Shown in pieces: positions 16,866 to 63,178 of a stretch of DNA of 64,000 nucleotides. The position numbers and the translations under genes were made by a program. The notes under the pieces are model-generated. The model did not search any database. It saw only the letters and a list, made by a program, of their open reading frames with translations, and was not told the origin of the DNA. Each line of letters opens with the position of its first letter. The first letter of the stretch is position 1. The stretch is from Bdellovibrionales bacterium (GTDB lineage Bacteria; Bdellovibrionota; Bdellovibrionia; Bdellovibrionales; UBA1609), in contig OZ241456.1 in NCBI GenBank assembly GCA_965200875.1, positions 128,001-192,000 on the forward strand, in the 5' to 3' direction.

Positions 16866-20492
<3,627 letters not shown>

Positions 20493-44315: not shown

Positions 44316-44603
44316 TTATTTCTTTTGCTTTAAAAGCAATTCATACAATTTGTCAAAACGATTACTTAACTGATCAATACGATCGCTTAATTTATCAATT
44401 TTTTTATTTGTTTCAGTATTAAGAGTTTCAATTTTTTTATTTGTTTCAGTGATATGGTTAGTCAATAACTTTTCGATAGGCTTTATTTTATTGTCTATGG
44501 AGTTTGTAATCAGCCAACCCAGATTTCCAAACAGAGCACTTGTGTAAAGAACAAAAAATGAAAGAGCTACCCATAAACTTTTATCTGACTTTTTTTGGTT
44601 CAT
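44316..44603 (-). CDS. Membrane-anchored coiled-coil protein (dispersed family, copy 1)
   Basis: W-x8-YT TM helix; NHITETNKKI; RFDKLYELLLK; RBS AGGGAAGGA. Confidence 0.8.
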   Translation of the reverse strand: MNQKKSDKSLWVALSFFVLYTSALFGNLGWLITNSIDNKIKPIEKLLTNHITETNKKIETLNTETNKKIDKLSDRIDQLSNRFDKLYELLLKQKK

Positions 44604-44743
44604 ATTCCTTCCCTACTCGATATAATTGAATATAACATATTTAAATTAATACATTCAGATTGAAAAATTGCGTAAAAAGTGAATTTTTACAAGTTGACAG
44701 TCTCCCTGAACTCCTAAAACTGAAAAATAGTTTTTAATTACAA

Positions 44744-46219
44744 TCAAAAGGGAGGGGGATCATTAGGGGAGTTTCTTACAGGAGGTCTTTCCATAGGGGA
44801 GTTACCCATAGGGGGTCTTCCCACATCATGAGGGCCTGTCATAATTTGTGTATTTTCGGCTATGGGAATATAGTTTTCAAACAGTCCAAAACGAGCATCC
44901 CATTTTAAGGTGACTTTTCCGGTGGGTCCGTTTCTTTGCTTGTTTAATATAACTTCTGCTAAGCCCGCTTTTTCACTGTTATCATTGTAGTAATCATCAC
45001 GATAAAGCATCATAATTACATCTGCGTCTTGTTCGAGGGAGCCGGATTCCCTTAAGTCCGAAAGCAGAGGTCGCCGATTCACTCTCCCCTCCACTCCCCG
45101 GTTTAACTGAGAAAGTGCTACTACGGGAATCTGAAGTTCTTTGGCCAGAGATTTGAGAAGTCGGGATATTTCAGAAACCTCTCTTTCCCGGCTCTCCATA
45201 GTTGCTTTAAGGCTCATCAGTTGCAGATAATCCACGATTAAAAGATCTAGGCCGTGTTGAGATTTGAGTTTTCTTGCCCGCGAGCGAATCTCAAAAGGGG
45301 ATAGAAAAGAGGAATCATCTAAAAAAAAGGTCACATCATTTAACTTAGAACCGGCCACTATCAGATTATCCCAGTCTTGGGTTGTAATCTGCCCGGTTCT
45401 TAAGTGAGATAAAGGAACTTTGCCGGTCAAAGATAAAAGCCTCATCAAAATTTGCTCTTTAGCCATTTCCACTGAAAAAAAAGCCACTTTTTTATTGTTC
45501 AAGCTGGCATTTAGAGCAATGTTTAAGCTGAAGGCAGTTTTTCCCATGGAAGGTCTAGCCGCAATAATACTAAGCTCTCCAGACTGAAAACCTGAAGTCA
45601 GATGATCCAGCTCTGAAAAATTAGTGGAAATCCCGGTGACACTTAATCTTTTGCCTTGTAAATCCTCTAGGCGTTTTAAGCTTTCGGCTACCATATCAGG
45701 AACTGGCAAAAGTTGCTTTTGAGTAAGATTTTCTGTAAATTGAAAAAGATCTTTTTCCAAAGAATCAATAAAATGTTCTAATTTGAAAAAATCATGGCTG
45801 ATAGCTCTTTGCCGAAAATCAGAACAAAGATGAATGATTTTTCTTAAAATGGATTTTTCGCGAATGATGTGGGAGCACTCTTCTGCGGAAACGGGAGAAG
45901 CACTTTCTTCCACCAATTCTGCCAGATATAAGGATCCGCCGGAGCTTTCTAGTTTCCCATTTTTTTTCAATTCCTCGCTAATGCGGAGAATATCCCCGGA
46001 CCGATCGGACTTATAGAGTGTTTCCATACAGGAAAAAATATCCTGATGGGCTGGTTTGTGGAAATCTTCCGACTTCAGGATTTCCATCACTTCGTCCCAG
46101 GTTTTTTGTTGTCCGGCGAGCAAAGCCCCTAAGATAAATCGTTCTCCTTCCAGAGAAGAAGGCAGGAATTTATGCTCTGTTTGAGAAAAAGGTTTTTTTC
46201 GGGTTTTAGAAAAGGGCAT
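44744..46219 (-). CDS. dnaB: Replicative DNA helicase DnaB
   Basis: AARPSMGKT, VDYLQLM, ALSQLNR, DLRESGSLEQDAD, KQRNGPTG. Confidence 0.97.
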   Translation of the reverse strand: MPFSKTRKKPFSQTEHKFLPSSLEGERFILGALLAGQQKTWDEVMEILKSEDFHKPAHQDIFSCMETLYKSDRSGDILRISEELKKNGKLESSGGSLYLAELVEESASPVSAEECSHIIREKSILRKIIHLCSDFRQRAISHDFFKLEHFIDSLEKDLFQFTENLTQKQLLPVPDMVAESLKRLEDLQGKRLSVTGISTNFSELDHLTSGFQSGELSIIAARPSMGKTAFSLNIALNASLNNKKVAFFSVEMAKEQILMRLLSLTGKVPLSHLRTGQITTQDWDNLIVAGSKLNDVTFFLDDSSFLSPFEIRSRARKLKSQHGLDLLIVDYLQLMSLKATMESREREVSEISRLLKSLAKELQIPVVALSQLNRGVEGRVNRRPLLSDLRESGSLEQDADVIMMLYRDDYYNDNSEKAGLAEVILNKQRNGPTGKVTLKWDARFGLFENYIPIAENTQIMTGPHDVGRPPMGNSPMERPPVRNSPNDPPPF

Positions 46220-46311
46220 CACAGATGAGGACTTTACAGGCAAGGACCAGGGTTTATCAAGCAAAAAAATTGGACTTTTATTATTAAACTTCTTTTTTTA
46301 CACTATTTGTA

Positions 46312-48675
46312 ATGAAAGCAGTATTTTATGGATACAGAGCGGATATTGTTGGCTTGTTTTGGCTGGCGGTGGCTTTTTTTTTCAGTTTAGCTTTAGGCAG
46401 TTATTATCCTCTGGACCCTTCTTTTAACGCTATTGGCACGGTATTGGCTCAGGCACAAAACAAATGTGGTTATCTGGGCTCCTTTATGGCGGACCTGCTC
46501 TATCAGGGTTTTGGTCTTTCCTCTTGGGTGTTTGTTCTGCTGGCTTTAAGGCAGTCCATGCTTGTTTTTCAAAGAAAATGGACGGAAATGGAATGGATGA
46601 ATAACCTGATAATATTATTTTTAAGTCTTTTTGTTTGTTCTTCGTTATTGGAATTGCATCAACCAGGAAGAAGATTTTTTGAGGGGCATATTCTTCCTGG
46701 AGGAGCATTGGGTCGTGCTGTTGTGAAAATCAGTGAACCATTTTTACATTTTCCAGGGCAGGTTCTTGTATTGTGGTCATTGGCTCTGGCCCTTTTTGTT
46801 TTGATCACAAAAGTTCCTGTTTCCGATTTGGTTTTGAAAACAGGGATTCTTTTAAAAAAAGGAGCGGTGAAAACTTTTTTGCTTTTTAGTTCCCATGTTT
46901 ATAAGATTTTCGTAAAAGCCCTTGGGCTTTTTATTTCTTTTTCGACTGCGAGTTTGGTTTTTCTGAGAAAAAAAACAGGCTTTAAGTTTCCGTTTCTTTC
47001 TTCCACCACCACTACTTCTTCTTCCCTTCCCTCTTTTCCCGCAGATTCTTCTTTAAAGAAATCAGATGGCAAAGGCGTTCTTTTTTCTTCGGTTTCCTCC
47101 GCTGAAAATTATTTTTTTCAGGAAGAAAAATCAGCAGAGGAAGAGGGGGTTGGAACAGAGGAAATGGAGGACGGGGAATATAAAGATCCCGCACAGATAA
47201 AATGGACTTTGCCTACAGCAGATTTGTTAAATCCTGTGATTTCTTCTTGGCAGATGAGTGCTAGGGAAAGCCGGGCAGATGCAGAGAGGCTCAAGGAAAA
47301 ATTAAAACAGTTTTCCATCTCCGGGGAGATCACCAATATTCGAACCGGCCCGGTTATTACTTTGTTTGAGTTCAAACCGGAAGATCATGTTAAAGTGGCT
47401 CGTATCACACAGATGGAAGACGACTTAATGATAGCACTTAAAAGCAAGTCCATAAGAATTATTGCCCCTATTCCTGGTAGAGATGTGGTGGGAATTGAAA
47501 CCGCTCACACTAAACGGCAGATGGTGTATTTAAAAAGCCTAGTGAATGAGCCAATTTTTTTGGAGAAAAACTGTGATTTACCTTTAGTTTTAGGCCGTCA
47601 TGTGGATGGCCGATCCGCCATTTTGGATTTGGGAAAAATCCCCCATCTGATGGTGGCGGGATCTACAGGATCAGGGAAATCTGTATTTATAGTGTCTTTT
47701 CTTTTGAGTTTGCTTTTTCGCCATACTCCTCAGAGTTTGCGCTTATTGCTGGTGGATCCTAAAAGAGTGGACTTAAGTGTTTTTAGTGGTCTTCCGCATC
47801 TATTGGCTCCGCCGGCTCGTGAAGCCAAATCCGCTGTAGAGGTTTTGGAGTGGTGTTTAAGGGAAATGTATAAAAGATATCGCTCTCTTTCCCGTTTTCA
47901 GGCTCGGGATCTTAGAGGATTCAATGAGAGAATAAAACACTTAAGTGCTGAAGAGATTCAACAAAATGAAGAGTTCTCAGAAAGTTTGGAAAAAACAGAA
48001 GAGGATTACTACTTTTTACCACAGCCTTATATTTGTGTTGTGTTGGAAGAGTTTGGCGACTTAATGGCCTCTCCAGAGAGAAGTCGTGTTGAAAGCTTGG
48101 TGGTGCGACTTGCGCAGATGGCCCGGGCCTGTGGGATACATTTGATTTTATCCATGCAAAGCCCTAGGAAAGATGTGGTGACAGGCTTGATAAAAACCAA
48201 TATCCCCGGTCGGATTAGTTTCAAAGTTTCCTCCCGTATTGACTCCCGTATTATATTGGATGAAGGAGGCGCGGAAAGGCTTCTTTCTCAAGGGGATATG
48301 CTCTATTTGGGGCCAGGTCAGGCCCGACCAGAAAGGTATCATGGTCCTTTTGTGAGCGAAAAGGAAGTGTCATCTGTTGTGCAGTTTTGGAAAAGGCAGT
48401 CTCCCGGCAATAACTTTTATGTGGTAAAATTTTCCTCAGAGGAAAAAAGGTTTAGGACTAGGGAAAGTATGTCTTTGGACCCGGAAGAAGATCAAAAGTA
48501 CGAAGAGGTATTTTCTTATGTGTCAGAGCTTAAAGAGGTAAGTGCTTCTCATTTGCAAAGAAGATATGGCTTGGGTTATCCTCGGGCGGCTAGGCTCATT
48601 GATCGTCTGGAAGAAGAGGGTGTGGTGGGTCCTGCCAGAGGGAGCAAACCCCGTGAAGTGTTGGGACATAAATAA
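46312..48675 (+). CDS. ftsK: DNA translocase FtsK
   Basis: 4TM N-terminus, PHLMVAGSTGSGKS, ARACGIHL, gamma domain SASHLQRR..GYPRAARL. Confidence 0.96.
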   Translation: MKAVFYGYRADIVGLFWLAVAFFFSLALGSYYPLDPSFNAIGTVLAQAQNKCGYLGSFMADLLYQGFGLSSWVFVLLALRQSMLVFQRKWTEMEWMNNLIILFLSLFVCSSLLELHQPGRRFFEGHILPGGALGRAVVKISEPFLHFPGQVLVLWSLALALFVLITKVPVSDLVLKTGILLKKGAVKTFLLFSSHVYKIFVKALGLFISFSTASLVFLRKKTGFKFPFLSSTTTTSSSLPSFPADSSLKKSDGKGVLFSSVSSAENYFFQEEKSAEEEGVGTEEMEDGEYKDPAQIKWTLPTADLLNPVISSWQMSARESRADAERLKEKLKQFSISGEITNIRTGPVITLFEFKPEDHVKVARITQMEDDLMIALKSKSIRIIAPIPGRDVVGIETAHTKRQMVYLKSLVNEPIFLEKNCDLPLVLGRHVDGRSAILDLGKIPHLMVAGSTGSGKSVFIVSFLLSLLFRHTPQSLRLLLVDPKRVDLSVFSGLPHLLAPPAREAKSAVEVLEWCLREMYKRYRSLSRFQARDLRGFNERIKHLSAEEIQQNEEFSESLEKTEEDYYFLPQPYICVVLEEFGDLMASPERSRVESLVVRLAQMARACGIHLILSMQSPRKDVVTGLIKTNIPGRISFKVSSRIDSRIILDEGGAERLLSQGDMLYLGPGQARPERYHGPFVSEKEVSSVVQFWKRQSPGNNFYVVKFSSEEKRFRTRESMSLDPEEDQKYEEVFSYVSELKEVSASHLQRRYGLGYPRAARLIDRLEEEGVVGPARGSKPREVLGHK

Positions 48676-48692
48676 AAACTAAGGATTAAAAA

Positions 48693-49574
48693 ATGAAAAA
48701 GATGGAAGGGATTATTACAGCTCTTGCCACACCTTTTCAGGAAGGAAAATTGGATGAAGAGTCTTTTGGAAAACTCATTCAGTTTCAAAAAGATCAGGGG
48801 GTGGATGGCTTTGTGATAAACGGCACCACGGGGGAAAGTCCTTGCCTGTTTCCAAAAGAGGTGGAAAAGCTTTTTGAATGGACTAAGGAGAAGGCAGGAG
48901 AAAAACTTCTTATACTGGGGGTGGGGGGAAACTCCACTGAGAAGACTTTGGAAAATATCAAGATCGCGGAAAATTTACAGGCAGATGCAGTATTGGCTGT
49001 GGTGCCTTATTATAACAAGCCTCCTCAACGGGGGCTTATAAAGCATTTTAAAAAGCTTTCGGAAAAAAGCTCTTTACCGATTCTGTTATATAATGTTCCA
49101 GCTCGTACCGGAGTGGGGCTTTCTCTAGAAAGTGTTTTGGAATTAAGCCGTGAGACTAATATTTTGGGTATTAAGGAGGCCAGTGGTGACTTACAGTTTG
49201 GAAGGGCAATTATTGAAAAAACGAATAAAGATTTTGTTGTATTAAGTGGAGATGATGAAACCGGCCTGGATCTTTTTGCCCTTGGTGGAAAAGGTATAAT
49301 CTCTGTCATAAGCCATATTCTGGGGAAAGAAATGAAAAACTTGCTTCAAAGGATAAAAGAAGGCCAAAAAGAAACTCCTTTAAAAGAGTATAAGGAAAAG
49401 TACGGAGAACTTTTAAAAAATATTTATGCAGAAAGCAACCCCATAGGAATTAAAATGGCTTTAAAGCTGAAAGGTGTTTTTAAATCCGCAGAACTCAGAA
49501 GTCCTTTGGTGAGTCTAGAGGGGCAAAAGGTAATCTCCTTAAAAGAAACTCTTAAATCCAAAGGGTTATTATAA
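48693..49574 (+). CDS. dapA: 4-hydroxy-tetrahydrodipicolinate synthase
   Basis: GTTGES, PYYNKP, LYNVPART, GIKEASG. Confidence 0.96.
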   Translation: MKKMEGIITALATPFQEGKLDEESFGKLIQFQKDQGVDGFVINGTTGESPCLFPKEVEKLFEWTKEKAGEKLLILGVGGNSTEKTLENIKIAENLQADAVLAVVPYYNKPPQRGLIKHFKKLSEKSSLPILLYNVPARTGVGLSLESVLELSRETNILGIKEASGDLQFGRAIIEKTNKDFVVLSGDDETGLDLFALGGKGIISVISHILGKEMKNLLQRIKEGQKETPLKEYKEKYGELLKNIYAESNPIGIKMALKLKGVFKSAELRSPLVSLEGQKVISLKETLKSKGLL

Positions 49575-49603
49575 AGGTTCTGGCTGGAGCAAGATATGGA
49601 GGC

Positions 49604-50383
49604 GTGTTGAATCTAAAAAAAAGTAAAGCTTTAAAAAACCGGTCCAGTTTGCGTCATCGGAAAATCAAAGTGGGGCTAAGTGGTGCGAGCGGGCGAATGG
49701 GGCAGGCCGTAAAAGAGCTGATACAGGTAAAAAATTCCGACTTTGTACTCACTTCGGAAATGCCTTCGCCTTCTGTTGAGCATAAAGGGGTTTTGCGAAC
49801 GATAAAAGCTGGTTTTGATAAATGGGATTCTCGGCAAATAACTGCTGTGATTGACTTTTCCTCTCCGGAACTTTTTGACAAAGCCTTAAACTGGTGTCTT
49901 TCAAATAAAAAACCCTTCGTGAGTGGCACTACGGCTTTAAGTTCCATTCAGAAAAAAAAACTTAACCAAGCCAGCAAAAAAATTCCTGTCTTTTATGAAG
50001 AGAACATGAGTTGGGGAATTTGGCAGATAAAAAAGTGGATCCAAAGGATATCTAATCAGGCTGGAAGGATTTTATTGGAGGATATTCATCATAAAAACAA
50101 AAAAGATAAACCCAGTGGAACAGCCTTAAAATTAAAAAGACATTTACCGGCTTTTGCTCAGAAAAAACTAAAAATAAAAAGCTTTCGTAAGGGAGAGGAA
50201 TTTGGTACTCACCGATTTGTATTTTTTGGTGAAGAGGAACAGGTGATTTTAGAGCACAAAGCTTTAAGCAGGCTTTTATTTGCAGGAGGAGCTTTAAAAG
50301 CTTTAAAATGGTTGGTAAAAAAACCTTCCGGGCTTTATTCTTTTGAAGATCTTTATAAAGAAAACCTAAAAAAGAAAGGATAA
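49604..50383 (+). CDS. dapB: 4-hydroxy-tetrahydrodipicolinate reductase
   Basis: GASGRMG, IDFS, GTT, HHKNKKDKPSGTA. Confidence 0.93.
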   Translation: MLNLKKSKALKNRSSLRHRKIKVGLSGASGRMGQAVKELIQVKNSDFVLTSEMPSPSVEHKGVLRTIKAGFDKWDSRQITAVIDFSSPELFDKALNWCLSNKKPFVSGTTALSSIQKKKLNQASKKIPVFYEENMSWGIWQIKKWIQRISNQAGRILLEDIHHKNKKDKPSGTALKLKRHLPAFAQKKLKIKSFRKGEEFGTHRFVFFGEEEQVILEHKALSRLLFAGGALKALKWLVKKPSGLYSFEDLYKENLKKKG

Positions 50384-50388
50384 AAAAA

Positions 50389-51054
50389 ATGCAATTTTTT
50401 GTGGATACAGCGGATTTAAAACAAATAAAAGAAATAAATAAGTGGTTTCCTGTGGATGGAGTTACCACTAATCCCACTTTAGTGGCAAAAAGTGGTGAAG
50501 AGCATATAAGCCTTATTCGTTCCATAGCAGAAACTGTGGAAGGTCCAGTGAGTGCTGAAGTTATCACGACTTCTTCTGAAGAAATGATAAAAGAAGCTCG
50601 AGTTTTGTCGAAAATTCATCCTCAGGTGGTGGTGAAACTTCCTTTAAACCCAGAGGGGCTTTTGGCAACCCAGATTCTTTCGAAAGAAAATATTTCCACC
50701 AATTTAACGCTTTGTTTTTCCGCTCTTCAGGCGTTATCTGCTACGCGTGCTGGTGCGAATTTTGTCTCCGTGTTTGTGGGTCGTTTAGATGATACAGGAG
50801 GGGATGGAATGGAAATAGTGTCTCAGATCATAAATATTTTTACCCAATATCAAATAAAGTCAAAAGTCATAGTAGCAAGTGTTAGGAATGTGAGCCATAT
50901 CCTGACTTCAGCCAATCTGGGTGCGGATATTGTGACAATTCCTCCTGCTTTGTTTTTACAAATGGTTCAACATCCTCTTACAGATAAAGGTCTGGCTCAA
51001 TTTCTTGCTTCGGCAAGGGGAGCAGAGAAAAAGAGGAAAAATGCCAAGAGCTGA
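50389..51054 (+). CDS. tal: Transaldolase (short TalC/FSA type)
   Basis: FFVDTAD, GVTTNP, VVVKLP, FVGRLDD, HPLTDKG. Confidence 0.93.
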   Translation: MQFFVDTADLKQIKEINKWFPVDGVTTNPTLVAKSGEEHISLIRSIAETVEGPVSAEVITTSSEEMIKEARVLSKIHPQVVVKLPLNPEGLLATQILSKENISTNLTLCFSALQALSATRAGANFVSVFVGRLDDTGGDGMEIVSQIINIFTQYQIKSKVIVASVRNVSHILTSANLGADIVTIPPALFLQMVQHPLTDKGLAQFLASARGAEKKRKNAKS

Positions 51055-51123
51055 TCATCACTGCTACTATATAAAATAACACCACTTGCAAAAAAATGCT
51101 GTTTACGGGCTTTTTACCCATAT

Positions 51124-51152
51124 TTGCTATCTTTACTTATGGGTGATATAAT
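51124..51152 (+). promoter_or_regulatory. Sigma70-type promoter of family copy 2
   Basis: TTGCTA-N17-TATAAT with TG extension. Confidence 0.6.
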
Positions 51153-51187
51153 AATTACTTATAGTAATACACCTTTTGGGGGTTTTT

Positions 51188-51487
51188 GTGGCGAATTGGT
51201 CATTTGGGGTTTTTGTTGTTGCTTATACAGGATTAATTCTGGGTATTTTAAAATTGATGCTGGATAATCAAACAAAGCTGATAAATGAAAAGTTGGATAA
51301 TCAAACAAAGCTGATGAATGCTCAAATACAGCCAATAAATGAAAAGCTGGATAACCATATCTCAGATACGAATAAGAAAATTGATGATACAAATAAGAAA
51401 ATTAATAAACTGGAAACTGAAATCAAATCGGAACTTAGAGAGATAAAAGCTGATATGAAAGAATATTTTGCAAAGAGACCTTCTTAA
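51188..51487 (+). CDS. Membrane-anchored coiled-coil protein (dispersed family, copy 2)
   Basis: W-x8-YTGL TM helix; NHISDTNKKI; start uncertain (GTG 51188 or TTG 51176). Confidence 0.75.
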   Translation: MANWSFGVFVVAYTGLILGILKLMLDNQTKLINEKLDNQTKLMNAQIQPINEKLDNHISDTNKKIDDTNKKINKLETEIKSELREIKADMKEYFAKRPS

Positions 51488-51511
51488 TATCACATTCAAA
51501 ATCAGGATGAT

Positions 51512-51643
51512 ATGCTTATAAAAAGAAAAGATATTTTATGGACTCTTTTTTTTCTTTTCATGGGATTTCTGGTTTGGTTTTTTCCAAGGTTTATGGATTC
51601 CCTGAAATTTTTAGGTTTTTCTGAGCCTTTGATTTTGCAATAA
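51512..51643 (+). CDS. Possible 43-aa membrane peptide
   Basis: MLIKRKDILWTLFFLFMGFLVWFFPRFMDSLKFLGFSEPLILQ; AGGA upstream. Confidence 0.35.
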   Translation: MLIKRKDILWTLFFLFMGFLVWFFPRFMDSLKFLGFSEPLILQ

Positions 51644-51697
51644 ATTCCCCAAGATTTAGTTCTGGAAACTTTGATTTTACTGGTAAAATAATTTTTT

Positions 51698-53434: not shown

Positions 53435-53507
53435 TGGCTCGGGACGGAATCGAACCGCCGACACAGAGATTTTCAGTCTCCTGCTCTACCGACTGAGCTA
53501 CCGAGCC
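53435..53507 (-). tRNA. tRNA-Phe(GAA), CCA not encoded
   Basis: GGCTCGGTAGCTCAGTCGGTAGAGCAGGAGACTGAAAATCTCTGTGTCGGCGGTTCGATTCCGTCCCGAGCCA folds as a cloverleaf. Confidence 0.97.
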
Positions 53508-54658
53508 TTAAGATGTTTAAAAGCTTGTAAAAAGTCTTCTTTTAAATCTTCTATATTTTCAATACCCACACTGACACGAATCAGGGATTCCGGGGGGGGA
53601 TGAGGAGAGCTGGCATGAGTCATGCTGGCCGGATGTTCCACCAAAGATTCCACTCCTCCCAAACTTTCCGCCAAAGTAAAAACCTGAAATCGGCTTAAAA
53701 CTTCAAAAACCTGTTTTTTATTTCCATTGAGAAAAAAACTAAGCATCCCTCCAAAACCCGACATTTGTTTTAAAGCCAGAGAATGTTGTGGGTGGGATTT
53801 TAAGCCAGGGTATAAAATTTTTTTTACCTCTTTTCGGCTTTCTAGGAAATGGGCTAATTCCTTTGCGTTTTTTTCATGTTCTTTCATTCGCACGGCCAAG
53901 GTTTTAAGGCTTCTCAGTAAAAGATAAGAATCAAAAGGAGACAGAACCGGCCCCAGAGATTTGCTCAAAAAAGCCAGTTTTTCTGCGAGCTTAGGGCAGT
54001 TTGTGGTAATTGTTCCTGCCACAATATCTGAATGGCCGCTTAAATATTTGGTCGCTGAATGGATCACAATATCCGCGCCCATTAAAAGCGGTTTTTGGAA
54101 AAAAGGACTCATAAAGGTATTATCCACTGCCAGCAAAATTTTGTGTTTTTTCGTAAAAGCACTTAAGTTTTGAATATCCATTAATTTCATAAGAGGGTTG
54201 GTGGGGGTTTCCACCCAAACCATTTTTGTTTTTTCAGGAATATTTAAAATATTTTCTTTTCGTGAAAGATCTTTTAAAAAAATACGCACCCCGCGGGGTT
54301 TTAAGATTTGTGTGAGAATTCTAAGACTTCCCCCATAAAGATCTTCTTCAGCCACCAGAAGGTCTCCAGGTTTTAAAAGCTCAAATATCAGGGAGCTTGC
54401 GGAAACTCCAGAGGAGCAGGCAAAGGAAAATCGTCCTTCTTCAAGGGAGCTGATACATTTTTCCAGGGCTTTTCGGGTGGGGTTTGCGACACGGGAATAT
54501 TCATAACCTTTGTGTTTTCCCGGTGCACTTTGAGCATAAGTGGAGGAAAGAGTGATGGGGGTCATAACCGCACCAGTTACGGGGTCAGGTTCCTGCCCGG
54601 CATGAATGGCTCGTGTGGCAAAGTTTTTCCTATTCTGATTTTGGTTCATAGTCTGCAT
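53498..54658 (-). CDS. Cystathionine gamma-lyase/synthase (Cys/Met PLP enzyme)
   Basis: YSRVANPT, ETPTNP, VDNTF, HSATKYLSGHSD, AESLGGVES. Confidence 0.95.
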   Translation of the reverse strand: MQTMNQNQNRKNFATRAIHAGQEPDPVTGAVMTPITLSSTYAQSAPGKHKGYEYSRVANPTRKALEKCISSLEEGRFSFACSSGVSASSLIFELLKPGDLLVAEEDLYGGSLRILTQILKPRGVRIFLKDLSRKENILNIPEKTKMVWVETPTNPLMKLMDIQNLSAFTKKHKILLAVDNTFMSPFFQKPLLMGADIVIHSATKYLSGHSDIVAGTITTNCPKLAEKLAFLSKSLGPVLSPFDSYLLLRSLKTLAVRMKEHEKNAKELAHFLESRKEVKKILYPGLKSHPQHSLALKQMSGFGGMLSFFLNGNKKQVFEVLSRFQVFTLAESLGGVESLVEHPASMTHASSPHPPPESLIRVSVGIENIEDLKEDFLQAFKHLKAR

Positions 54659-54783
54659 AATATAATGAAGAATGGAGATTTAGGAAAATGTTTTTTAAGG
54701 TTTTCTAAATCCCGCTGGTTAAGAAAATCATGCCCCTCTCAAAGCCGATCTAAAGGGCTAAAAAAAGCATTGCTTTTAAGCCT

Positions 54784-55659: not shown

Positions 55660-55672
55660 AGTGTCTTTCTTT

Positions 55673-56791
55673 TTAGAAAAAATCCTTATCTCTTAAAATT
55701 ATTTTTTGGCCACTGGTTAAATAGATATATTTTACACCGGATTTTTTGTAGCTTTCCCATTTTAATTTGTAAGAGCCGGGTTTTTTGACCCGAATATCCA
55801 GAGGTGGATAACCCGTAAACCCTGACATTTTCACATACACCCATTTTTTCGTGCGAATCAGCACTTCTGCAGGATGTGCAGAAGGTTTGTGTTTGCCATA
55901 AGAGGTAAAGGGATTGGCAGTAAACACAAGAAGGAAGAATAGCAAGGTACAGCTGATAACAGATTGATAGGAAAATAGCTTTTTTTTGGGAAGAGAAGGG
56001 TATTTAGGCTTTTTTTTCCGGGAAAAGCAGTTCTTGATAAACAGGCTATGATGAATTTTTTGTCCTAGGGAGGATAAAGCTTTAGGGGAGAAGGAAAAGT
56101 TTTTTTCTTTTCTTTTTTCCGGGGATGGATCCAAAAGAGGATCTTCTTTGTGGATAAAGTGCTCGCTTTCTAGGCTTGAAAGCTCCTCTTCCAGAACTCT
56201 TCCGATTAGCACTTTTTCTAAAACACCTAAAGAAAAGAGATCCGACTGAAAACCCGCTGATTTACCTTTGTAAAGCTCTGGTGCTGTGAAGGGTTTTGTG
56301 CTGTAGGTGAGGTTTTTTGTGTAGTTGCTCAAACCATAATCTGTCAGATAAACAGATCCATTGGTATCAATTAAGATATTGGAAAGACTTATATCCCCGT
56401 GTGAAAGCCCGTTTTTCAAAAGCTCTTTTAAGCCCGTGAGTACTTGTGAGCAAATACAGTTTATTTCATTTTTGTTAAGAGAGGTGTTTTTTACCAATTG
56501 TTTAAGGTTTAAACCGGGAATGTACTCCAAAATTAACGCGGGGCGAGAATGAAACTTTTCAAAGGAAAGTGCTTTTACCAAGTGAGTGCTGTGTCTGGCT
56601 CTTAACAGGGATTCCATTTGCAGGATCGAAAGCAATCTTTCTTTTTTTTTAAAGAGCTTGATAATCACCGGCATTTTGATTTTCAGATCTGTATCGGTAC
56701 GGTGGGCCAAATACACTATATTAAAAGGACTTTCTCCTAAAATTTCTTGAACTTCATAGGAATGCGAGGAGGTGATAAACCTGTTGGACAT
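55673..56791 (-). CDS. Membrane Ser/Thr (Hanks-type) protein kinase
   Basis: HGDISLSNIL, DYG, APE, SDLFSLG, TM helix, short extracytoplasmic tail. Confidence 0.85.
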   Translation of the reverse strand: MSNRFITSSHSYEVQEILGESPFNIVYLAHRTDTDLKIKMPVIIKLFKKKERLLSILQMESLLRARHSTHLVKALSFEKFHSRPALILEYIPGLNLKQLVKNTSLNKNEINCICSQVLTGLKELLKNGLSHGDISLSNILIDTNGSVYLTDYGLSNYTKNLTYSTKPFTAPELYKGKSAGFQSDLFSLGVLEKVLIGRVLEEELSSLESEHFIHKEDPLLDPSPEKRKEKNFSFSPKALSSLGQKIHHSLFIKNCFSRKKKPKYPSLPKKKLFSYQSVISCTLLFFLLVFTANPFTSYGKHKPSAHPAEVLIRTKKWVYVKMSGFTGYPPLDIRVKKPGSYKLKWESYKKSGVKYIYLTSGQKIILRDKDFF

Positions 56792-56831
56792 GTCCTTTTT
56801 TTAAAGGAAAAAACTCAAATGTCAAAAGCTT

Positions 56832-57281
56832 TTATGGAATATCATGTAAATGCCATTTTAATATATTTTCAGGAGCTTGATCTCTTAACTGATATTCTAT
56901 CAGTTTTTTCGCTCGTTTTATTTGTTTTCGGCAAAATTCACTTAAATGTTGTTTTTGCAAAATTTGTTTTATTTGTTCGGGCTTTTTCAGTCTCCCGGAA
57001 AACTCTTCGCATTTTTCATTTAAATAGGATGTCAATAAGGTATTTTTTTGAATGTGCGGGTTTTTGGAAAAATTTTTCCATTCATAACAGGCATAGGGTA
57101 CGGTTTCTTTTTGTAATTGTAACAGGCAGAGGGTTTTCAGTTTTTCTTTGGTTTCCTGTTTTTCTATCATTTTCTCCAGTTCTTGGGTACTTCTGGCAGA
57201 CATCCATTGTTCATTTGGGAAGCTGAGTAAAGGGTATGGTAATAATAGAATGTAAAAAAGTTTTTGGAAAAATGTTTTCAT
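56832..57281 (-). CDS. Exported hypothetical protein (4 Cys)
   Basis: Signal-like N-terminus, AGGAG RBS, sigma54 promoter upstream. Confidence 0.7.
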   Translation of the reverse strand: MKTFFQKLFYILLLPYPLLSFPNEQWMSARSTQELEKMIEKQETKEKLKTLCLLQLQKETVPYACYEWKNFSKNPHIQKNTLLTSYLNEKCEEFSGRLKKPEQIKQILQKQHLSEFCRKQIKRAKKLIEYQLRDQAPENILKWHLHDIP

Positions 57282-57321
57282 GGGTCAAATGCTCCTTTTA
57301 AAGTTTTTATTTTTCGTAATA

Positions 57322-57337
57322 AGCAAAATCCGTGCCA
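57322..57337 (-). promoter_or_regulatory. Sigma54 -24/-12 promoter
   Basis: TGGCACGGATTTTGCT = TGGCAC-N5-TTGCW. Confidence 0.85.
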
Positions 57338-57366
57338 GATATTATTATTCTGGAATAAAAGTGTTT

Positions 57367-57798
57367 TCAGTTAAAGCTTGCTTGCAGTTCGAGCAGTAAA
57401 GGGGCTAGTAAAAGAAGAAAGAAAGCGGGCACCTGAAATAAAAAAAGCGGAATAAGAGAGATAAAGGGCAATGTTTGAATTTGTTGTTCTAAATCCTCTA
57501 GAGCAATTGTTTTCAGTTCTTCTTCCAGATCCTGAAGAAGGCCCAGTATAGGTTCTCCTTTAAGTCCCCGCTCAAGAATGTCTAAAAGAGTTTTTCTATA
57601 GGGTTTTTTTGTCAAGCTTAGGTCAGTAAATGTTTTTCCGGTTTCCCGGCAAAACAGCCACTGCCGAAGAGAGGAGGCAAAAGCTGAGTCCGGCTGATTT
57701 TTCAAATAAAGATGGATGGCTGAGCGGACAGACAGTCCATTTTTAATATTCATCTGAATTTGAAGCAAAGCGTTTAAAGGGGGAGCTAAACAGTCCAT
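57367..57798 (-). CDS. TadC-like (T2SSF-like) membrane protein
   Basis: MDCLAPPL...GLKGEPI...LIPLFLFQVPA; overlaps the TadB-like gene. Confidence 0.55.
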   Translation of the reverse strand: MDCLAPPLNALLQIQMNIKNGLSVRSAIHLYLKNQPDSAFASSLRQWLFCRETGKTFTDLSLTKKPYRKTLLDILERGLKGEPILGLLQDLEEELKTIALEDLEQQIQTLPFISLIPLFLFQVPAFFLLLLAPLLLELQASFN

Positions 57799-58541
57799 TT
57801 TATTTTCCTTCCACATTGAAATAAAACAATAAGCCCGGTTAAAAACAGAAAAAGAGATAACAATAAAATTTGCAGGTACTTTAAACCATATTTTTGCAGG
57901 ACAAACAGAAAAAGCCCGGAATAAAGAATCAACAGAATAAAAGATTGAATGTGAATTTGAAGGAGAGCGGACTGCACTTTTTTTCGAAAAACAGATCGTA
58001 CTTTCACTTGATGTCGTAAATTTTCCAGATGCTCCAAACATTGTGGGGAGAGGTCTGCTTGTTTCAGCTCTTCAATCATTTGCCGGAGCGGGGGAAAACA
58101 AAATTCTTTTCGGAGACTTTTTGCATAAGAGATTATTTCCAATATTTCCATAAAATAATTTTGAAAATGTCTATGTGAAAGCATTGTCAAAGCTATTTTG
58201 AAGCCGGCCCGAAAACTAGAGCCTATTTTAATTTGGGCTATGAGAGCATTTAGAAAAAGTTCAAATTGCAAATAAAACTGTTGTTTCCATACGAAAAGCA
58301 GGAACCACTGCAAAAAGAAAGTCAGTATTAAAGGAAAGTAAATAACTAGATATTTAAAAAACAAAATGGGCAGAGAAAGTTGAGAAAGGAGAAAAACAAG
58401 TAAAACACTGAAAATAAACCAGATTTTCCAGACTATTGGAGATAAAAAACTGAGAAAGATACTTTTATGAAGAGTGTTCCAAAGTATCTTCAGACAAATA
58501 AGAATATGAAAAAATAACAATAAAGATTTTGTGTCAGTCAT
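57786..58541 (-). CDS. TadB-like (T2SSF-like) membrane protein
   Basis: FL..LI..IKIGSSFR...LENLR...FRKKV..LQ pattern with flanking TM helices. Confidence 0.6.
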   Translation of the reverse strand: MTDTKSLLLFFHILICLKILWNTLHKSIFLSFLSPIVWKIWFIFSVLLVFLLSQLSLPILFFKYLVIYFPLILTFFLQWFLLFVWKQQFYLQFELFLNALIAQIKIGSSFRAGFKIALTMLSHRHFQNYFMEILEIISYAKSLRKEFCFPPLRQMIEELKQADLSPQCLEHLENLRHQVKVRSVFRKKVQSALLQIHIQSFILLILYSGLFLFVLQKYGLKYLQILLLSLFLFLTGLIVLFQCGRKIKWTV

Positions 58542-58675
58542 ATAAATATTATGATATGCAAAATAGAGAGCATTTTTTTATTTGACTGGAAAAGAAAGTG
58601 GAGTGACACTAATTAAAAAATCGGTGGAAGTTTTTTTTCATCGTGAAACATCAGCACTCAACATGAGGAGGAGCA

Positions 58676-58906
58676 ATGGCTGGCAAAAAAACAAAGAAGA
58701 AAGCCAAGAAAAAGGTAACCCGGAAAAAAGCTGTAAAGAGGAAAGTAAAGAAGAAGGTCAAGAAAAAGGTAACTAGAAAGAAGGTTACTAGAAGAAGGAA
58801 AGCGGGTAAGAAAAAGGTAACTAGAAAGAAGGTTACCAGAAGAAGGAAAACGGGTAAGAAAAAAGTTAAAAAGAAAGTAAAGAAGAAGGTTAGGAGAAAA
58901 AAATAA
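58676..58906 (+). CDS. Extremely basic histone H1-like protein
   Basis: Composed only of K/R/V/T/A/G/M; GAGGAGG RBS; 48-nt tandem duplication 58760-58855; terminator follows. Confidence 0.85.
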   Translation: MAGKKTKKKAKKKVTRKKAVKRKVKKKVKKKVTRKKVTRRRKAGKKKVTRKKVTRRRKTGKKKVKKKVKKKVRRKK

Positions 58907-58918
58907 TTAAGATAGTTT

Positions 58919-58961
58919 AGACCTCTCGATAACTTTTCCTTTTCGGGAGGTCTGTTTTTTT
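58919..58961 (+). terminator. Rho-independent terminator
   Basis: AGACCTCTCGA/TCGGGAGGTCT stem followed by T7. Confidence 0.8.
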
Positions 58962-59221
58962 CAGAAATCAAAACTGAGTTTATTTTATCAAGCGGGAGTC
59001 GTGTCCTAAAGGTATTGATTTTTGCTCCGCGCTTTAATTCTGGTTTTTGTCAAATATGTTTAAAAGTCAGAAAAACACAAGCCCTAAGGCCAGATTATTC
59101 AGGATCGGTTTGGTGGAATCAAATCATCTTTTGCTCTGATACTTTGAGTAAAAAAGGTTTTTAGGGCTTGAAAAAAAATAGTTTTGAAAATGGAACAATT
59201 TTGGGCTTAAAGGTTTTTTTT

Positions 59222-60148
59222 ATGAAAAAGGCAAAAATTTCTATTATTGGCGGTGGGTTTGTAGGTTCCACTTGCGCGCATTGGCTTTTAAGTCGGGACT
59301 TAGGGGATATAGTTTTACTGGATATTGCGGAAGATATGGTAAAAGGTCGTGCTTTAGATCTTTTTCAATCCCGCTCTTTGACCTCCTCCAGTCTGCAAAT
59401 AAAAGGAACTGCAAACTATCAGAATATTGAAAATTCAGATATCGTGATTATTACGGCCGGTCAGGCGCGAAAACCGGGAATGAGTCGGGACAGGCTAAGA
59501 GATATAAACGCAAAAATAATAGTGCAGGTTTGCGAACAGATAAAAACAAAAGCTCCTTTAGCCTGTGTCATTATAGTGACCAATCCTTTGGATGTAATGG
59601 CTTATCTGGCTTGGAAAACTCTGGATTTTCCGGCTGAGCGGGTAATGGGTATGGCTGGAGTCCTAGACAGTGCTCGTTTTAAGGCTTTTGTTGCGCAGGA
59701 ATTAGGAGTAAGCGTTCAGGATGTGCAGGCTTTTGTTTTAGGTGGGCATGGAGATACTATGGTGTTGCTGACTCGTTTGTGTCATGTGGGAGGTATTCCT
59801 TTGAAGGAGTTGTTGCCAAAAGAGAGAATTAACTTTTTAGTGGAAAAAACCAAGTCCGGTGGTGCAGAAATTGTTTCTTTACTTAAAACCGCTTCGGCTT
59901 ATTATGCTCCGGCTTTAAGTGTGGTGGAAATGGTTACGGCGATTTTAAAAGATCAAAAACGAATTTTGCCTTGTTCGACTCTTTTAAGAGGAGAATATGG
60001 AGTCCAGGATTTATTTATGGGTGTTCTTTGTTGCCTAGGAGCAGGTGGAGTGGAAAAAGTGATGGAGTTTTCCCTGAAAGAAGAGGAAAAAGAGCAGTTT
60101 CAAAAATCGGTTTTTGCTGTTAAAAACCAAGTGGATCCGTTGAAATAA
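59222..60148 (+). CDS. mdh: Malate dehydrogenase (LDH-like)
   Basis: GGGFVG, TAGQARKPGMSR, VTNPLD, GGHGD. Confidence 0.96.
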   Translation: MKKAKISIIGGGFVGSTCAHWLLSRDLGDIVLLDIAEDMVKGRALDLFQSRSLTSSSLQIKGTANYQNIENSDIVIITAGQARKPGMSRDRLRDINAKIIVQVCEQIKTKAPLACVIIVTNPLDVMAYLAWKTLDFPAERVMGMAGVLDSARFKAFVAQELGVSVQDVQAFVLGGHGDTMVLLTRLCHVGGIPLKELLPKERINFLVEKTKSGGAEIVSLLKTASAYYAPALSVVEMVTAILKDQKRILPCSTLLRGEYGVQDLFMGVLCCLGAGGVEKVMEFSLKEEEKEQFQKSVFAVKNQVDPLK

Positions 60149-60196
60149 AAAGGTTTGAAATTCCTTTTCTTTATTTTTAAGGAGTGTAAATTTATA

Positions 60197-61387
60197 ATGG
60201 AAATTCATGAGTATCAGGCAAAAGCTTTGCTTAAGCAATTTGGTGTTCAGATTCTCTTAGGTCAGGTGGCAGAAGATGCCGATCAGGCTTTCAAAATCGC
60301 GAAGGAAATGCCATCTTCCAAAGGATGGGTGGTTAAAGCGCAGGTACAGGCAGGGGGGCGTGGTCTGGCAGGCGGTATAAAAAAAGCGAGTGATCCCGCG
60401 GAAGTGAAAAAAATCACCAAGCAAATGATAGGTCAGAAATTAGTAACCGCTCAGACAGGTGCGGAAGGAAAAATCATCCACCAAGTACTGGTGGAAAAAA
60501 TGTGTGAAGTGGAAAAAGAGTTTTATCTGGCTTTGCTTTTGGACAGATCTGCTCAAAAACTCTGTTTGGTAGCGAGTGCTGAAGGGGGTGTTTCTATAGA
60601 GGAAGTGGCGGAAAAGTCCCCGGAAAAAATTCTTAAAATGGAAATTGATCCTCTCACCGGCTTGCTCTCCTTCCAAGTGATGACTCTTTTAAAATGTTTT
60701 AATCTTTCGTTTTCTTTTTTTGGAAAACTGGATCTTTTTTTGCGTTCTCTTTATAAATTGATGAGGGAAAAAGAAAGCACCTTAATAGAGATAAATCCTT
60801 TGGTTTGCACAAAACAAGGGGAAATTCTCCCTTTGGATGCCAAGATGAGTTTTGATGATAACAGTCTTTTTCGCCAAGCGGAAATAAAATCTCTGATGGA
60901 CTTAAAGGAGTTGCCTCTGGAAGAGCAAAAAGCTGAGGAGCATGGACTTTCCTTCGTGAAAATGTCCGGGGGAAACATAGGTTGTATGGTAAATGGGGCG
61001 GGCCTAGCTATGGCCACAATGGATATAGTCAGCTTAAAAGGAGCAAAACCGGCTAATTTTTTGGATGTAGGGGGAGGAGTGGATAGTGAAAAAATTGATG
61101 TGGCTTTTCAGATTTTAAAAGAGGACTCCCGTGTACAGGGAATATTGGTGAATATTTTTGGAGGGATCGTCAGATGTGACTTGATAGCCGAGGGTCTCAT
61201 TAAGGCCATTAACCTTTTGGAGATAAAAATTCCGGTGGTGGTGAGGCTTGAGGGTACGAATGCCAGTAAAGCGCGTCAAATATTGGAGGCATCCGGCCAG
61301 GATTTGAGTTTTGCGGATAAATTGGATTCTGCCACGGAAAAAATTATTTCCCTGGTGAATCAAAAACCACATCAGGGGTTGAGATGA
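60197..61387 (+). CDS. sucC: Succinyl-CoA synthetase beta
   Basis: [29 protein letters not shown]. Confidence 0.97.
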
Positions 61388-62256
61388 GCATTTTAATTGA
61401 TAAAAACACCAAATTGATTTGTCAGGGGTTTACCGGCAAGCAAGGCACTTTTCATTCTGCCCGTGCTTTGGAATATGGTGCTTTTCTCAAAGGAGGGGTC
61501 ACTCCCGGTAAAGGAGGTACAAGTCACTTAGGTTTGCCAGTGTTTGACACCGTAATGTCTGCTAAAGAGGCTACAGGTGCTAATGCTTCCGTGATTTATG
61601 TTCCTCCGGCTTTTGCTTTAAGTGCCATTTTAGAGGCAGTGAGTGCTGAATTGGATCTGGTGGTCTGTATTACAGAAGGTATTCCTCTCCATGATATGTT
61701 GCAGGTAAAGCAGTTTATGAAAGGAAAGAAAACCCGGTTGATTGGCCCTAATTGTCCAGGTGTTATTACTCCTGAACAATGTAAAATCGGTATTATGCCG
61801 GCTTATATTCACCGCAAAGGACCAGTGGGAGTGCTTTCCCGATCGGGCACTTTGACTTATGAAGCTGTGTGGCAATTAAGCTCTTTGGGCATAGGACAGA
61901 GTACCTGTGTGGGTGTGGGAGGAGATCCCATTCCTGGAACAGATTTTGTAGATCTTTTGAAGCTTTTTAAGGAAGACGAGCAAACGGAAGCTTTAGTAAT
62001 TATTGGAGAAATAGGCGGAGATTTAGAGGAGCGAGTGGCAGAGTACATCCAAAAGGAATTTAAGAAACCGGTTGTGGGTTTTATCGCTGGTCATTCCGCC
62101 CCTGAAGGAAAACGAATGGGGCACGCAGGGGCTATTGTCAGTGGAGGGAAAGGAACTGCCGAGGGAAAAATACAGGCTCTTAAGTCAGCAGGTGTTTTTA
62201 TAGCCAGATCTCCTGCGGAAATTGGTCTTACTTTAAAAAACAAGCTTTTTAATTAG
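61384..62256 (+). CDS. sucD: Succinyl-CoA synthetase alpha
   Basis: [26 protein letters not shown]. Confidence 0.97.
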
Positions 62257-62334
62257 TATATATGCTAAGTTCTGTTATTATTGTTGATCCCGGTTGCAAT
62301 TCTGAATATACATTTAAATCAAAGGGGGCTTTTT

Positions 62335-62745
62335 GTGGCTCAAAATATTACTTTTTCCATGATTAAGCCGGATGCTGTTTCCCGTGGCCTGATAGGGGCT
62401 ATCCTCCAGAAACTGGAATCTAAGGGTTTGAGAATGCGGGCAGGAAAGCTTATTCGTATGGATAAAACTCTTTCTGAAGCTTTTTATCAGGATCATAAAA
62501 CAAAACCTTTTTTTGATTCTCTTGTTCAGTTTGTTTCATCCGGCCCTGTTTTTGTAATGGCTTTAGAAGGGGAAAATGCCGTGGCAAAAACCAGAGAGCT
62601 TATGGGACATACAGATCCTTCTCAAGCTCTCCCTGGCACTATTCGATCTTTGTACGGGGAAAATATAGAAAGAAACTCCATTCATGGAAGTGATTCAGAA
62701 GAAAATGCAAAAAAAGAGCTAAAGCTTTTTTTTGAAGAATTGTAA
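62335..62745 (+). CDS. ndk: Nucleoside diphosphate kinase
   Basis: TFSMIKPDAV, PGTIR, NSIHGSDS; GTG start after GGGGG. Confidence 0.96.
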   Translation: MAQNITFSMIKPDAVSRGLIGAILQKLESKGLRMRAGKLIRMDKTLSEAFYQDHKTKPFFDSLVQFVSSGPVFVMALEGENAVAKTRELMGHTDPSQALPGTIRSLYGENIERNSIHGSDSEENAKKELKLFFEEL

Positions 62746-62857
62746 GGGATATAATTTTCATTTGATTAAAGGGTTTTGAGCTTCTTATGCTCCTTGCAAA
62801 AAAACCTTTTTTATTATTAGTTGCGCACTATTTTTAGCCTGTGATATAATAAAAAAG

Positions 62858-63178
62858 ATGAAGTTTAAAAATATATGGCCTGTAGCCTCTGTTGTTTTGC
62901 TTTATACTGGCTTAATTTTTGGTGGTTTGGCATGGATGTTTAACATTCAAACAGAGCAAATAAATGCCAAATTAGAGCAAAAAATAGGATTCATAAATGC
63001 CAAAATAGATGGAAAAATAGGATTCATAAATGCCAAAATAGAATCTATTCAAGAAACCTTAAATAACCATATCACTGACACAAATAAAAAGATTGATCGA
63101 TTAAGTGATCGTTTTGACAGATTAAGTGTTCGTTTTGACAAATTGTACGAAATCCTTTTGAAGGATAAAGAAAAATAA
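62858..63178 (+). CDS. Membrane-anchored coiled-coil protein (dispersed family, copy 3)
   Basis: W-x8-YTGL TM helix; NHITDTNKKI; RFDKLYEILLK; TTGCGC-N18-TATAAT ends 7 nt before ATG. Confidence 0.8.
   Translation: MKFKNIWPVASVVLLYTGLIFGGLAWMFNIQTEQINAKLEQKIGFINAKIDGKIGFINAKIESIQETLNNHITDTNKKIDRLSDRFDRLSVRFDKLYEILLKDKEK

Follow-up and report, generated by a model that had tools for sequence, protein, structure and literature searches.

The 64,000-nucleotide window analyzed here (positions 128,001 to 192,000 of contig OZ241456.1, assembly GCA_965200875.1) is part of a 1.83-Mb contig in a Bdellovibrionales genome (1.87 Mb, 37% GC), and carries four members of a family of small coiled-coil proteins, typically with an N-terminal membrane anchor. 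There is little doubt about how this family has evolved: it has expanded (29 genes at 24 loci in its two main subfamilies), its sites turn over quickly, its members are under purifying selection, and their stalks change length while keeping coiled-coil register. Its function is a more tentative matter. The reading preferred here, though we would not call it probable, is that the proteins may be constantly renewed, cytoplasm-facing, membrane-anchored decoys against invading phages and plasmids.

With E<1e-4 as the limit, an iterated profile picked out 33 of 31,473 six-frame open reading frames (ORFs), and with E<1 it picked out 47. This bears out an earlier reading made from the letters of the window (below, the sequence-only reading), which had seen three copies and expected many genome-wide. 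After removal of two fragments and three unrelated weak matches, the remaining 42 genes were grouped into subfamilies by eye. Subfamily A (14 genes, including a four-copy tandem) has the core LxNHITDTNKKI; subfamily B (15 genes, one doubtful) is homologous to it, the alignment spanning anchor and coil (HH probability 95.8). GC content is 0.31 for the genes of these two subfamilies vs. 0.38 for long ORFs. Subfamily C consists of CCDC90-like genes anchored at the C-terminus and over the cut-off for PF07798 (nine genes, six in tandem; G000 C1:1721090-1724404, 348420, 463141, and 793222, G000 being this genome); their hydrophobic segment starts at residue 94-187, as against residue 5-16 in the 27 anchored genes of A and B. 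The three or four genes of subfamily D are chimeras that join a CCDC90-type head to an anchor and a further coil (three of them at G000 C1:444448, 850474, and 1252291); they align with B from the anchor onward (HH probability 89.9) but hardly with A (28.6). Five more fragments or broken copies are spread across subfamilies A-D. The nine CCDC90-like genes and the chimeras are an unusual prokaryotic expansion of the CCDC90 family.

Judged by searches, the family appears nearly restricted to one genus. The third window copy (copy 3, below) matches 9 of 14 congeners and, weakly, 1 of 46 other relatives; a deeper subfamily-A profile reaches 10 of the 14, with 0-36 matches each (matches, not copy numbers), and finds a single match, partial and weak, across 300 genomes of the phylum. 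The subfamily-B profile is matched in 8 of 14 congeners and in none of the 46 other relatives. Among 185,579 species genomes, the family alignment located 56 loci, all in Bdellovibrionales metagenome-assembled genomes. Protein searches gave 212 matches, 401 at E 0.001 among 1.84 billion representatives, and 87 for subfamily B; no named protein was seen among the matches listed for the 212-match and subfamily-B searches. The sequence-only reading recognized no named family; no Pfam family passes its cut-off for A or B, and Pfam, PHROGs, NCBIfam, and PADLOC return only scattered coiled-coil look-alikes. No homologue was found in JGI metagenomes, and a literature search (its coverage excluding most subscription journals and supplementary tables) found no paper describing the family. 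The earlier label of an undescribed system is apt as far as the lack of a description goes; "system" fits less well, these being single genes without a partner, and expanded small coiled-coil families being known elsewhere. The family is an undescribed N-anchored, headless, roaming variant on the pattern of those known families (Bdr, DUF16, paREP15, CCDC90, DUF2730), with members predicted to be often leaderless, but it belongs to none of them.

Two observations from outside the family's core belong here. In the ESM Atlas, copy 3 resembles clusters without a name from Pseudomonadota (0.90) and from Acidobacteriota (0.87), a lead only; anchor-plus-coil mini-proteins may have expanded in other lineages too. 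An island in genome G003 (L146:5633-6700, 8893-9144, and 9596-10024) holds five different small coiled-coil genes, of which two are N-anchored, two have the head-anchor-coil build, and one is anchor-less with an NHVTDTNKKI core.

All three ORFs called by the sequence-only reading are present in the window, and all belong to subfamily A: copy 1 (44316-44603, minus strand, 95 aa), copy 2 (51176 or 51188-51487, plus strand, 103 or 99 aa, its start codon uncertain), and copy 3 (62858-63178, plus strand, 106 aa), with which copy 1 shares 49% and copy 2 shares 44% identity. A fourth member (41942-42298, minus strand) is of subfamily B, with anchor and coil but no NHITDT core. In copy 3 a hydrophobic segment (about residues 9-27) is followed by hendecad repeats (33-nt spacing), the core LNNHITDTNKKID, and heptad repeats; copy 1 has one exact 23-nt repeat at the same 33-nt spacing. 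Copies 1 and 3 do share the ending LS.RFDKLYE.LLK. Both proposed signatures, W-x8-YT and LxNHI[TS][DE]TNKKI[DE], can be seen in all three copies, but the first is not fixed in copy 2, because its Trp sits inside 27 nt that are absent from another strain's contig. Window DNA is present in sponge metagenome runs (share 0.47 and 0.24), and strain contigs from these metagenomes were aligned to the window at 95-99% identity or better: in copy 2, contig X3 lacks these 27 nt at the gene start, X3 and X5 lack 33 nt (one hendecad), and X5 lacks 21 nt (one heptad), all in frame.

The stretches upstream of the window copies are promoter-like. The region ahead of copy 3 (62793-62857, plus strand) has the CTTGCAAAAA A/T tract at 62793 and a TG (62842-62843) and TATAAT (62845-62850) only 7 nt ahead of the ATG, predicting a leaderless transcript. 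Copy 2 has a full promoter (51085-51152, plus strand): CTTGCAAAAA at 51085, a -35 box TTGCTA (51124-51129), 17 nt, and a TG-extended TATAAT (51147-51152); its start candidates are TTG 51176, GTG 51188, and an in-frame ATA at 51161, 8 nt past the -10 box. The claim that copies 2 and 3 have TG-extended boxes of their own is therefore confirmed, and copy 1 likewise carries one 25 nt upstream (TG 44637-44636, TATATT 44634-44629), within a region (44604-44693, minus strand) that also contains a purine-rich ribosome-binding-like stretch and, at 44693-44684, CTTGTAAAAA.

The same signals recur across the family. All 14 A genes and 9 of the 15 B genes have a TG-extended -10 box no more than 45 nt from the start, vs. 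34 of 699 genes with free upstream space; the box stands 4-9 nt ahead of the ATG, where a leaderless message is predicted, in 11 of 14 A and 2 of 15 B genes vs. 8 of 699; paralogues are not independent in these counts, and start calls are rough. Among relatives' copies, 32 of 53 have the extended box and 24 of 53 the leaderless type, three loci lacking an ATG start being omitted. As predicted from these sequences, expression would be constitutive and often leaderless. Family genes also show an orientation bias relative to the upstream gene (neighbor calls are rough; the genome background is 395 of 702).

How do the copies come to be where they are? The sequence-only reading had each copy sitting alone beside housekeeping genes, which does not hold for copy 1: this closes a variable island of 6.7 kb (37983-44743) between rplI and dnaB that also contains the subfamily-B gene, a pilin-like gene, an IS5-type transposase (43392-44255, with a DUF772 transposase domain), and a small GIY-YIG-like ORF. 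The genes rplI and dnaB adjoin each other in 12 of 14 congeners, and neither profile matches any of the 14 dnaB loci; one of these has an unrelated-looking anchor-plus-coil ORF. Copy 3 lies in a 459-nt insert (62746-63204, plus strand, including a 26-nt 3' tail) between ndk and a pilF-like TPR gene, a site at which none of the 13 congeners with an ndk match has a member (computed gaps of -13 to 109 nt vs. 459 here). At tal, beside copy 2, no member follows in any of the 14 congeners; in one of them a member lies upstream of tal, in different surroundings. All three window sites are without a member in congeners. In the reverse direction, 25 of 56 relatives' loci have orthologues of both flanks here and five are syntenic; four of these five sites are empty in this genome and one holds a B gene. 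Comparison of filled and empty sites, which the sequence-only reading had proposed, thus places the copies mostly where relatives' sites are empty, and the copies, which are many, do not lie at fixed orthologous loci. Turnover of sites is fast, though some may be shared between close species. In the strain contigs, whose cover is thin, no joint bypassing a whole copy was found.

The earlier idea of an expanded, self-contained gene cassette is supported, the cassette being promoter plus ORF; its variant, a transposon-like mini-element, is not. On one record are four near-identical copies whose similarity covers the ORF (truncated in one), some 55-100 nt before it, and 0-100 nt after it, with staggered, ragged ends. 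Pairs within this genome are similar from -33 to -60 up to about the stop codon (among the matches listed), and copy 3 and two other genomic copies have a common A/T tract at -65, the 5' limit of their similarity; the 3' tail of copy 3, about 25 nt long, is like those of two other copies. No terminal inverted repeats or flanking target duplications were found at copies 1-3, no sufficiently close empty allele being available to reveal a duplication, and transposases make up only 4 of 87 neighbors of relatives' copies, from three families, with no constant cognate. An IS- or MITE-type element, with sharp shared ends, terminal repeats, target duplication, and a constant transposase, does not match what is seen. 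Sharing of promoter and ORF with ragged ends fits transposase-free copying, although equally sharp similarity could arise if long-resident copies had converted one another.

Another proposed hallmark, the CTTG(C/T)AAAAA motif upstream of each copy, was found at -90, -91, and -65 (copies 1, 2, and 3), but it does not mark the family: it precedes only 4 of the 14 subfamily-A genes and 5 of 42 in the whole family, although this is an enrichment over the 4 of 887 long ORFs that have it. It resembles a -35 hexamer plus an A tract, stands in some copies at the right distance from the -10 box, and is the 5' limit of similarity in one subgroup only; it was dismissed as a family-wide cassette-end signal.

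One subfamily-A gene lies on a 31.5-kb contig of another genome (L143, G010 C2:8000-27999), apparently a 15.4-kb unit assembled twice, with a serine recombinase, primase-like ORFs, a pilin-like gene, and an ORF in common with G000 C2, a phage-like contig discussed below. From its gene content this is possibly a plasmid or phage satellite; its member indicates that small elements can carry family genes.

The predicted protein is a simple rod. AlphaFold2 models copy 3 as a single helix (residues 3-105, pLDDT 92), and an N-terminal hydrophobic segment is present in 187 of 222 homologues. Lys/Arg residues are in excess on the C-terminal side of this anchor in 162 of the 187 and on the N-terminal side in 12, with 13 ties, and the N-flank is net acidic on average, a bias that predicts N-out/C-in insertion with a cytoplasmic stalk. 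In oligomer modeling, as proposed in the sequence-only reading, a three-copy model of copy 3 scores 0.78 vs. 0.00 for the best control; runs agree in at least 91% of contacts, and pLDDT is at least 86. Of 30 solved homo-pairs 20 reach the threshold, which was calibrated on two copies, as does 1 of 23 single chains. Core contacts follow the hendecad L68-H71-T75-I79, and His71-His71 and His71-Thr75 are among the best-supported contacts between chains. The core His is present in 92 of 103 matches from a search without word seeds, although the profile itself favors His. A parallel homotrimer with the conserved L-H-I-T hendecad in its core is the predicted state. Comparing the fold of the single helix with viral structures told nothing (one match, E 7.2), and a weak PDB match to influenza HA2 (E 2.4e-4), in which a hydrophobic peptide likewise precedes a trimeric coil, was read as compositional.

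Pooled dN/dS is 0.27 over 18 non-overlapping pairs from subfamilies A-D, all at least 72% identical, a filter that biases the ratio downward; this check, suggested in advance, points to purifying selection at the protein level. Of 28 indels, 23 measure 4, 7, 11, 14, 21, or 22 residues, as heptad or hendecad changes of stalk length. Substitutions listed for copies 2 and 3 in the low-depth strain contigs show no synonymous excess (five of six change the residue).

Several known families offer points of comparison. CCDC90/DUF1640 proteins (PF07798), which we take to be those also called MempromCC, are trimeric coiled-coil proteins and resemble the family as single-pass membrane proteins with a long coiled-coil stalk, and both true members and fusions of a CCDC90 head to a subfamily-B anchor and coil occur in the same genome. 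PF07798 has no match in copies 1-3 and matches 3 of 108 members at E 2.4e-5 or weaker; the family differs in being headless and anchored at the N-terminus, and its alignments lack the ATKxD beta-layer neck described for CCDC90 proteins (PMC4786415).

The anchor of Borrelia Bdr proteins is C-terminal, whereas that of the Bdellovibrionales family is N-terminal. The two are alike as paralogous inner-membrane coiled coils with variable repeat number, and the KID/KIE tripeptides of Bdr (PFam80) have a counterpart in a KKID tripeptide; Bdr are described as Borrelia-only and plasmid-borne (PMC4370689). No KID-repeat model appears among the Pfam matches listed. The comparison with Bdr and CCDC90 made in the sequence-only reading was well chosen and, given nine CCDC90-like genes and chimeras in the same genome, understated.

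The best named match of the family profile is to paREP15-type proteins of Pyrobaculum (E 1.9e-9; HH probability 96.9), with a median of 42 bits on 119 of them vs. 5 on reversals. Their stalks repeat the hendecad LSARIDETNKRID, of which the family usually has one related version with His for Arg (L-x-x-[RH]-I-x-[ED]-T-N-K-[RK]-I-D). They are otherwise unlike it, being archaeal with a soluble N-terminal helical head, with a hydrophobic segment in 1 of 119 and NH[IV]T in 0 of 119, where Arg takes its place. The Arg suggests that the motif may be structural; either shared ancestry or convergence on a polar trimer motif could explain the likeness. Elements of the paREP kind occur in many copies and are linked to strain-specific regions, in passages that do not name paREP15 itself (PMC3558965).

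RepMP1/DUF16 of Mycoplasma pneumoniae is another near parallel: up to 20 dispersed copies with a core of about 300 bp and coiled-coil products, with strain differences in 21-nt repeats and domain shuffling (PMC3472980). Dispersed copies of this size, the coiled coil, and repeat-length variation are shared with the family; unlike it, RepMP1 keeps its positions among strains and has no shared N-terminal anchor. The DUF16 model weakly matches 3 of 108 members. Also alike in build is Mu releasin gp25/DUF2730 (PF10805), with about 100 aa, an N-terminal anchor, predicted N-out/C-in topology, and a cytoplasmic domain; DUF2730 genes lie within five genes of the endolysin in transposable phages (PMC9239132), whereas family genes lie among host genes, with no endolysin or phage context found. 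PF10805 does not match the window copies, gives 11 weak matches in five genomes with one congener ORF but none of this genome over the cut-off, and labels 4 of 87 subfamily-B homologues.

Gene neighborhoods were surveyed around relatives' copies, where 87 of 112 neighbors were scanned after 25 family members or short shadow ORFs had been dropped by eye. These sort into 12 restriction, defense, or ATPase genes, the four transposases, seven repeat proteins, 28 housekeeping or other genes, and 36 without a family. No constant partner, antitoxin-like partner, endolysin, or phage structural gene was found among the 87, nor was an endolysin or phage gene seen among the nearest neighbors of the 42 genomic members.

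These strands can be drawn together in a model. Its first part, the expansion, turnover, and selection set out above, is observed. Next, it is probable, taking both points jointly, that expression is always on and often leaderless with N-out/C-in insertion of a parallel homotrimer, and that a promoter-plus-ORF unit of 300-450 bp spreads without a transposase, through illegitimate recombination and slippage in tandem, and is sometimes carried on small plasmid-like elements; a new copy would be born expressed, and downstream genes need not be silenced. The last step is the decoy reading itself, in line with the phage exclusion that the sequence-only reading had named as one possibility: the rod may bind or co-assemble with a coiled-coil or membrane protein of an invading phage or plasmid, such as a phage DNA-ejection or lysis protein, and so poison it. 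Phage "moron" exclusion genes poison invaders, and these and other superinfection-exclusion membrane proteins are small single genes with their own promoter. The family's genes are likewise single, with their own promoter-like box, lower GC, and positions between conserved genes; always-on expression, dispensability, fast turnover, lack of a partner, a fixed core, and variable reach give them the look of moron-type conflict genes. Unlike morons, they occupy dozens of chromosomal sites, and no conserved terminator was seen. The nearest look-alikes by build being phage proteins of unknown or lysis-accessory function also favors decoys: phrog_1009 matches 39 of 108 members, and DUF2730 and viral Atlas clusters (up to 0.88, a lead only) have the same build. 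The member on the plasmid-like contig of G010 and a phage-like contig binned with this genome count on the same side.

A good deal weighs against decoys. The phage look-alike matches may reflect coiled-coil composition only, and no homologue was found in IMG/VR viral contigs (a scan made for members outside subfamily B) or, with two queries, in phage genomes. A 43-kb phage-like contig binned with this genome (G000 C2), with terminase-, portal-, and capsid-like ORFs recognized by eye and a weak endolysin match, has a 110-aa N-anchored coiled-coil gene (L147:1222-1554, minus strand), but this is not detectably related to the family. PADLOC has no match for copies 1 and 3 and, for others, partial coil matches at E 8e-5 or weaker; the 12 of 87 defense-type neighbors lack a genome background count, and 28 of 87 are housekeeping or ordinary genes. 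Two subfamily-A genes have no anchor, the topology rests on charge counting, and the chimeras, whose anchor is N-in, would have their homologous coil on the periplasmic side. The trimer is the sole oligomer number modeled, and likeness to solved trimers may inflate its score. Pairwise dN/dS gives no sign of positive selection, and a near-invariant core is less what an arms race would leave than what a host partner or a constant structural demand would.

That last point leads to the foremost alternative, possible but on the unlikely side: a dosage-type scaffold, as proposed for Borrelia Bdr and mitochondrial CCDC90 proteins, in which the rods would act as a lining or as spacers on the cytoplasmic face of the inner membrane, or hold host complexes there, with interchangeable paralogues and perhaps mixed trimers. 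The co-expanded CCDC90-like genes (nine here; up to 12 matches in one congener), the head-anchor-coil chimeras, an invariant core under purifying selection, strong consensus promoters, and the use of the same hendecad, with Arg for His, in the stalk of paREP15-type proteins would all suit such a role. There is no conserved locus, however, and members were not found in 4 of 14 congeners (A) or 6 of 14 (B), one of these genomes being 83% complete, nor in the other genera searched; with such patchy presence it is no core cell function.

A bolder version of the decoy reading, itself unlikely, is that sponge-dwelling Bdellovibrionales have a partner-free immune repertoire of dozens of leaderless, self-expressing mini-genes that move as promoter-plus-ORF units, with N-terminal modules (two anchor types, a soluble head, a CCDC90 head) swapped on a shared His-hendecad core, slippage-tuned stalks, and mixed trimers jamming phage entry or lysis. 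If true, this would be a first function for the expanded small coiled-coil class (Bdr, DUF16, paREP15, prokaryotic CCDC90), in which Borrelia, M. pneumoniae, and Pyrobaculum each expand families without a known function.

Somewhat less likely than a scaffold is near-neutral or selfish spread, of a self-promoted 300-bp unit tolerated anywhere in a repeat-rich symbiont genome, with selection removing only misfolders. Fragments and broken copies, tandem arrays, and a start codon that may have decayed in copy 2 are what this would produce, and further families have undergone large dispersed expansion in this genome, with 52 secreted pentapeptide-repeat and 31 PD-(D/E)XK transposase-like paralogues, along with several IS families and dispersed repeats of 100-300 bp. 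The 31 are presumably Rpn-like, and as such a candidate source of illegitimate recombination. Less easily accommodated are the core His in 92 of 103 matches, the conserved promoters, and the want of any encoded mobility function, terminal repeat, or target duplication.

An outward-facing envelope or host-interaction role, which had been among the suggestions of the sequence-only reading, now looks improbable; the protein would be a prey- or sponge-contact factor or an i-spanin-like periplasmic spacer whose coil length and sequence tune the envelope. The family is restricted to a lineage found in sponge metagenomes, the Rz-like spanin phrog_739 has matches in 18 of 108 members of A and 5 of 12 of B, and the chimeras would put a homologous coil in the periplasm; but the charge bias (162 vs. 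12 of 187, with an acidic N-flank) points the stalk inward, there is no head domain, and no cleavable signal, lipobox, or outer-membrane partner was seen by eye. A metal or ion sink or pH sensor, with the three core His binding Zn, Cu, or Ni, would make sense of the His71 contacts in the trimer model and of a His nearly invariant in subfamily A, but is very doubtful: subfamily B lacks the motif, the paREP15 stalk has Arg there, and among the 87 neighbors only one superoxide dismutase and one Fur relate to metals. A holin-like or type I toxin-like membrane toxin, despite the small single-pass build, holin PHROG matches in 4 of 108, and a size and topology like those of Mu releasin (PMC9239132), is scarcely credible, since the neighbors include no antitoxin-like constant partner, endolysin, or phage structural gene, BhlA/UviB holin (PF10960) has 0 matches at E 0.1 in five genomes, and leaderless genes with strong promoters would leave no 5' leader for antisense control.

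Whatever the function, the genus offers the clearest evolutionary series so far of such a family: its genomes have 0-36 matches each, sites are seen both filled and empty, repeats slip between strains, and versions anchored at the N-terminus, anchored at the C-terminus, without an anchor, or of chimeric build occur together. It also documents a minimal, transposase-free route of gene spread. With genes of about 300 bp and their own promoters, the function of the rods is testable in Escherichia coli: if they block phages, they would be a new single-gene defense class; otherwise, a lineage-specific expansion of modest interest.

Some further features of the genome deserve mention. The small ORF of the rplI-dnaB island (42799-43038, minus strand) is one of nine in the genome, of 60-80 aa, that we take to be GIY-YIG-like (the others at G000 C1:970734, 288472, 687910, 1536549, 1044200, 287903, 924409, and 1692214); neither Pfam nor PHROG nor PADLOC has a match for the window copy. 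Such an ORF stands immediately before three B genes and two ORFs before the window B gene. Another precedes what is presumably a CD-NTase-like ORF, and yet another stands two ORFs before a presumed TIR/ThsB-like ORF; these small ORFs are possibly a recurring leader gene of defense cassettes. A motif scan with crude patterns found no reverse-transcriptase-like ORF and one tyrosine-recombinase-like ORF.

Elsewhere in the window, a type II methyltransferase (3679-5060) has a nuclease-like ORF adjacent, a 76-aa Lys/Arg-rich repeat protein (58676-58906, plus strand) presumably resembles histone H1-like proteins, and a putative tRNA-like stretch (about 53435-53510) owes its high depth to other organisms. 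The replication-origin region (14218-23028; dnaA, dnaN, recF, gyrB, and gyrA, identified by eye) coincides with a switch in GC skew at about 14-16 kb.

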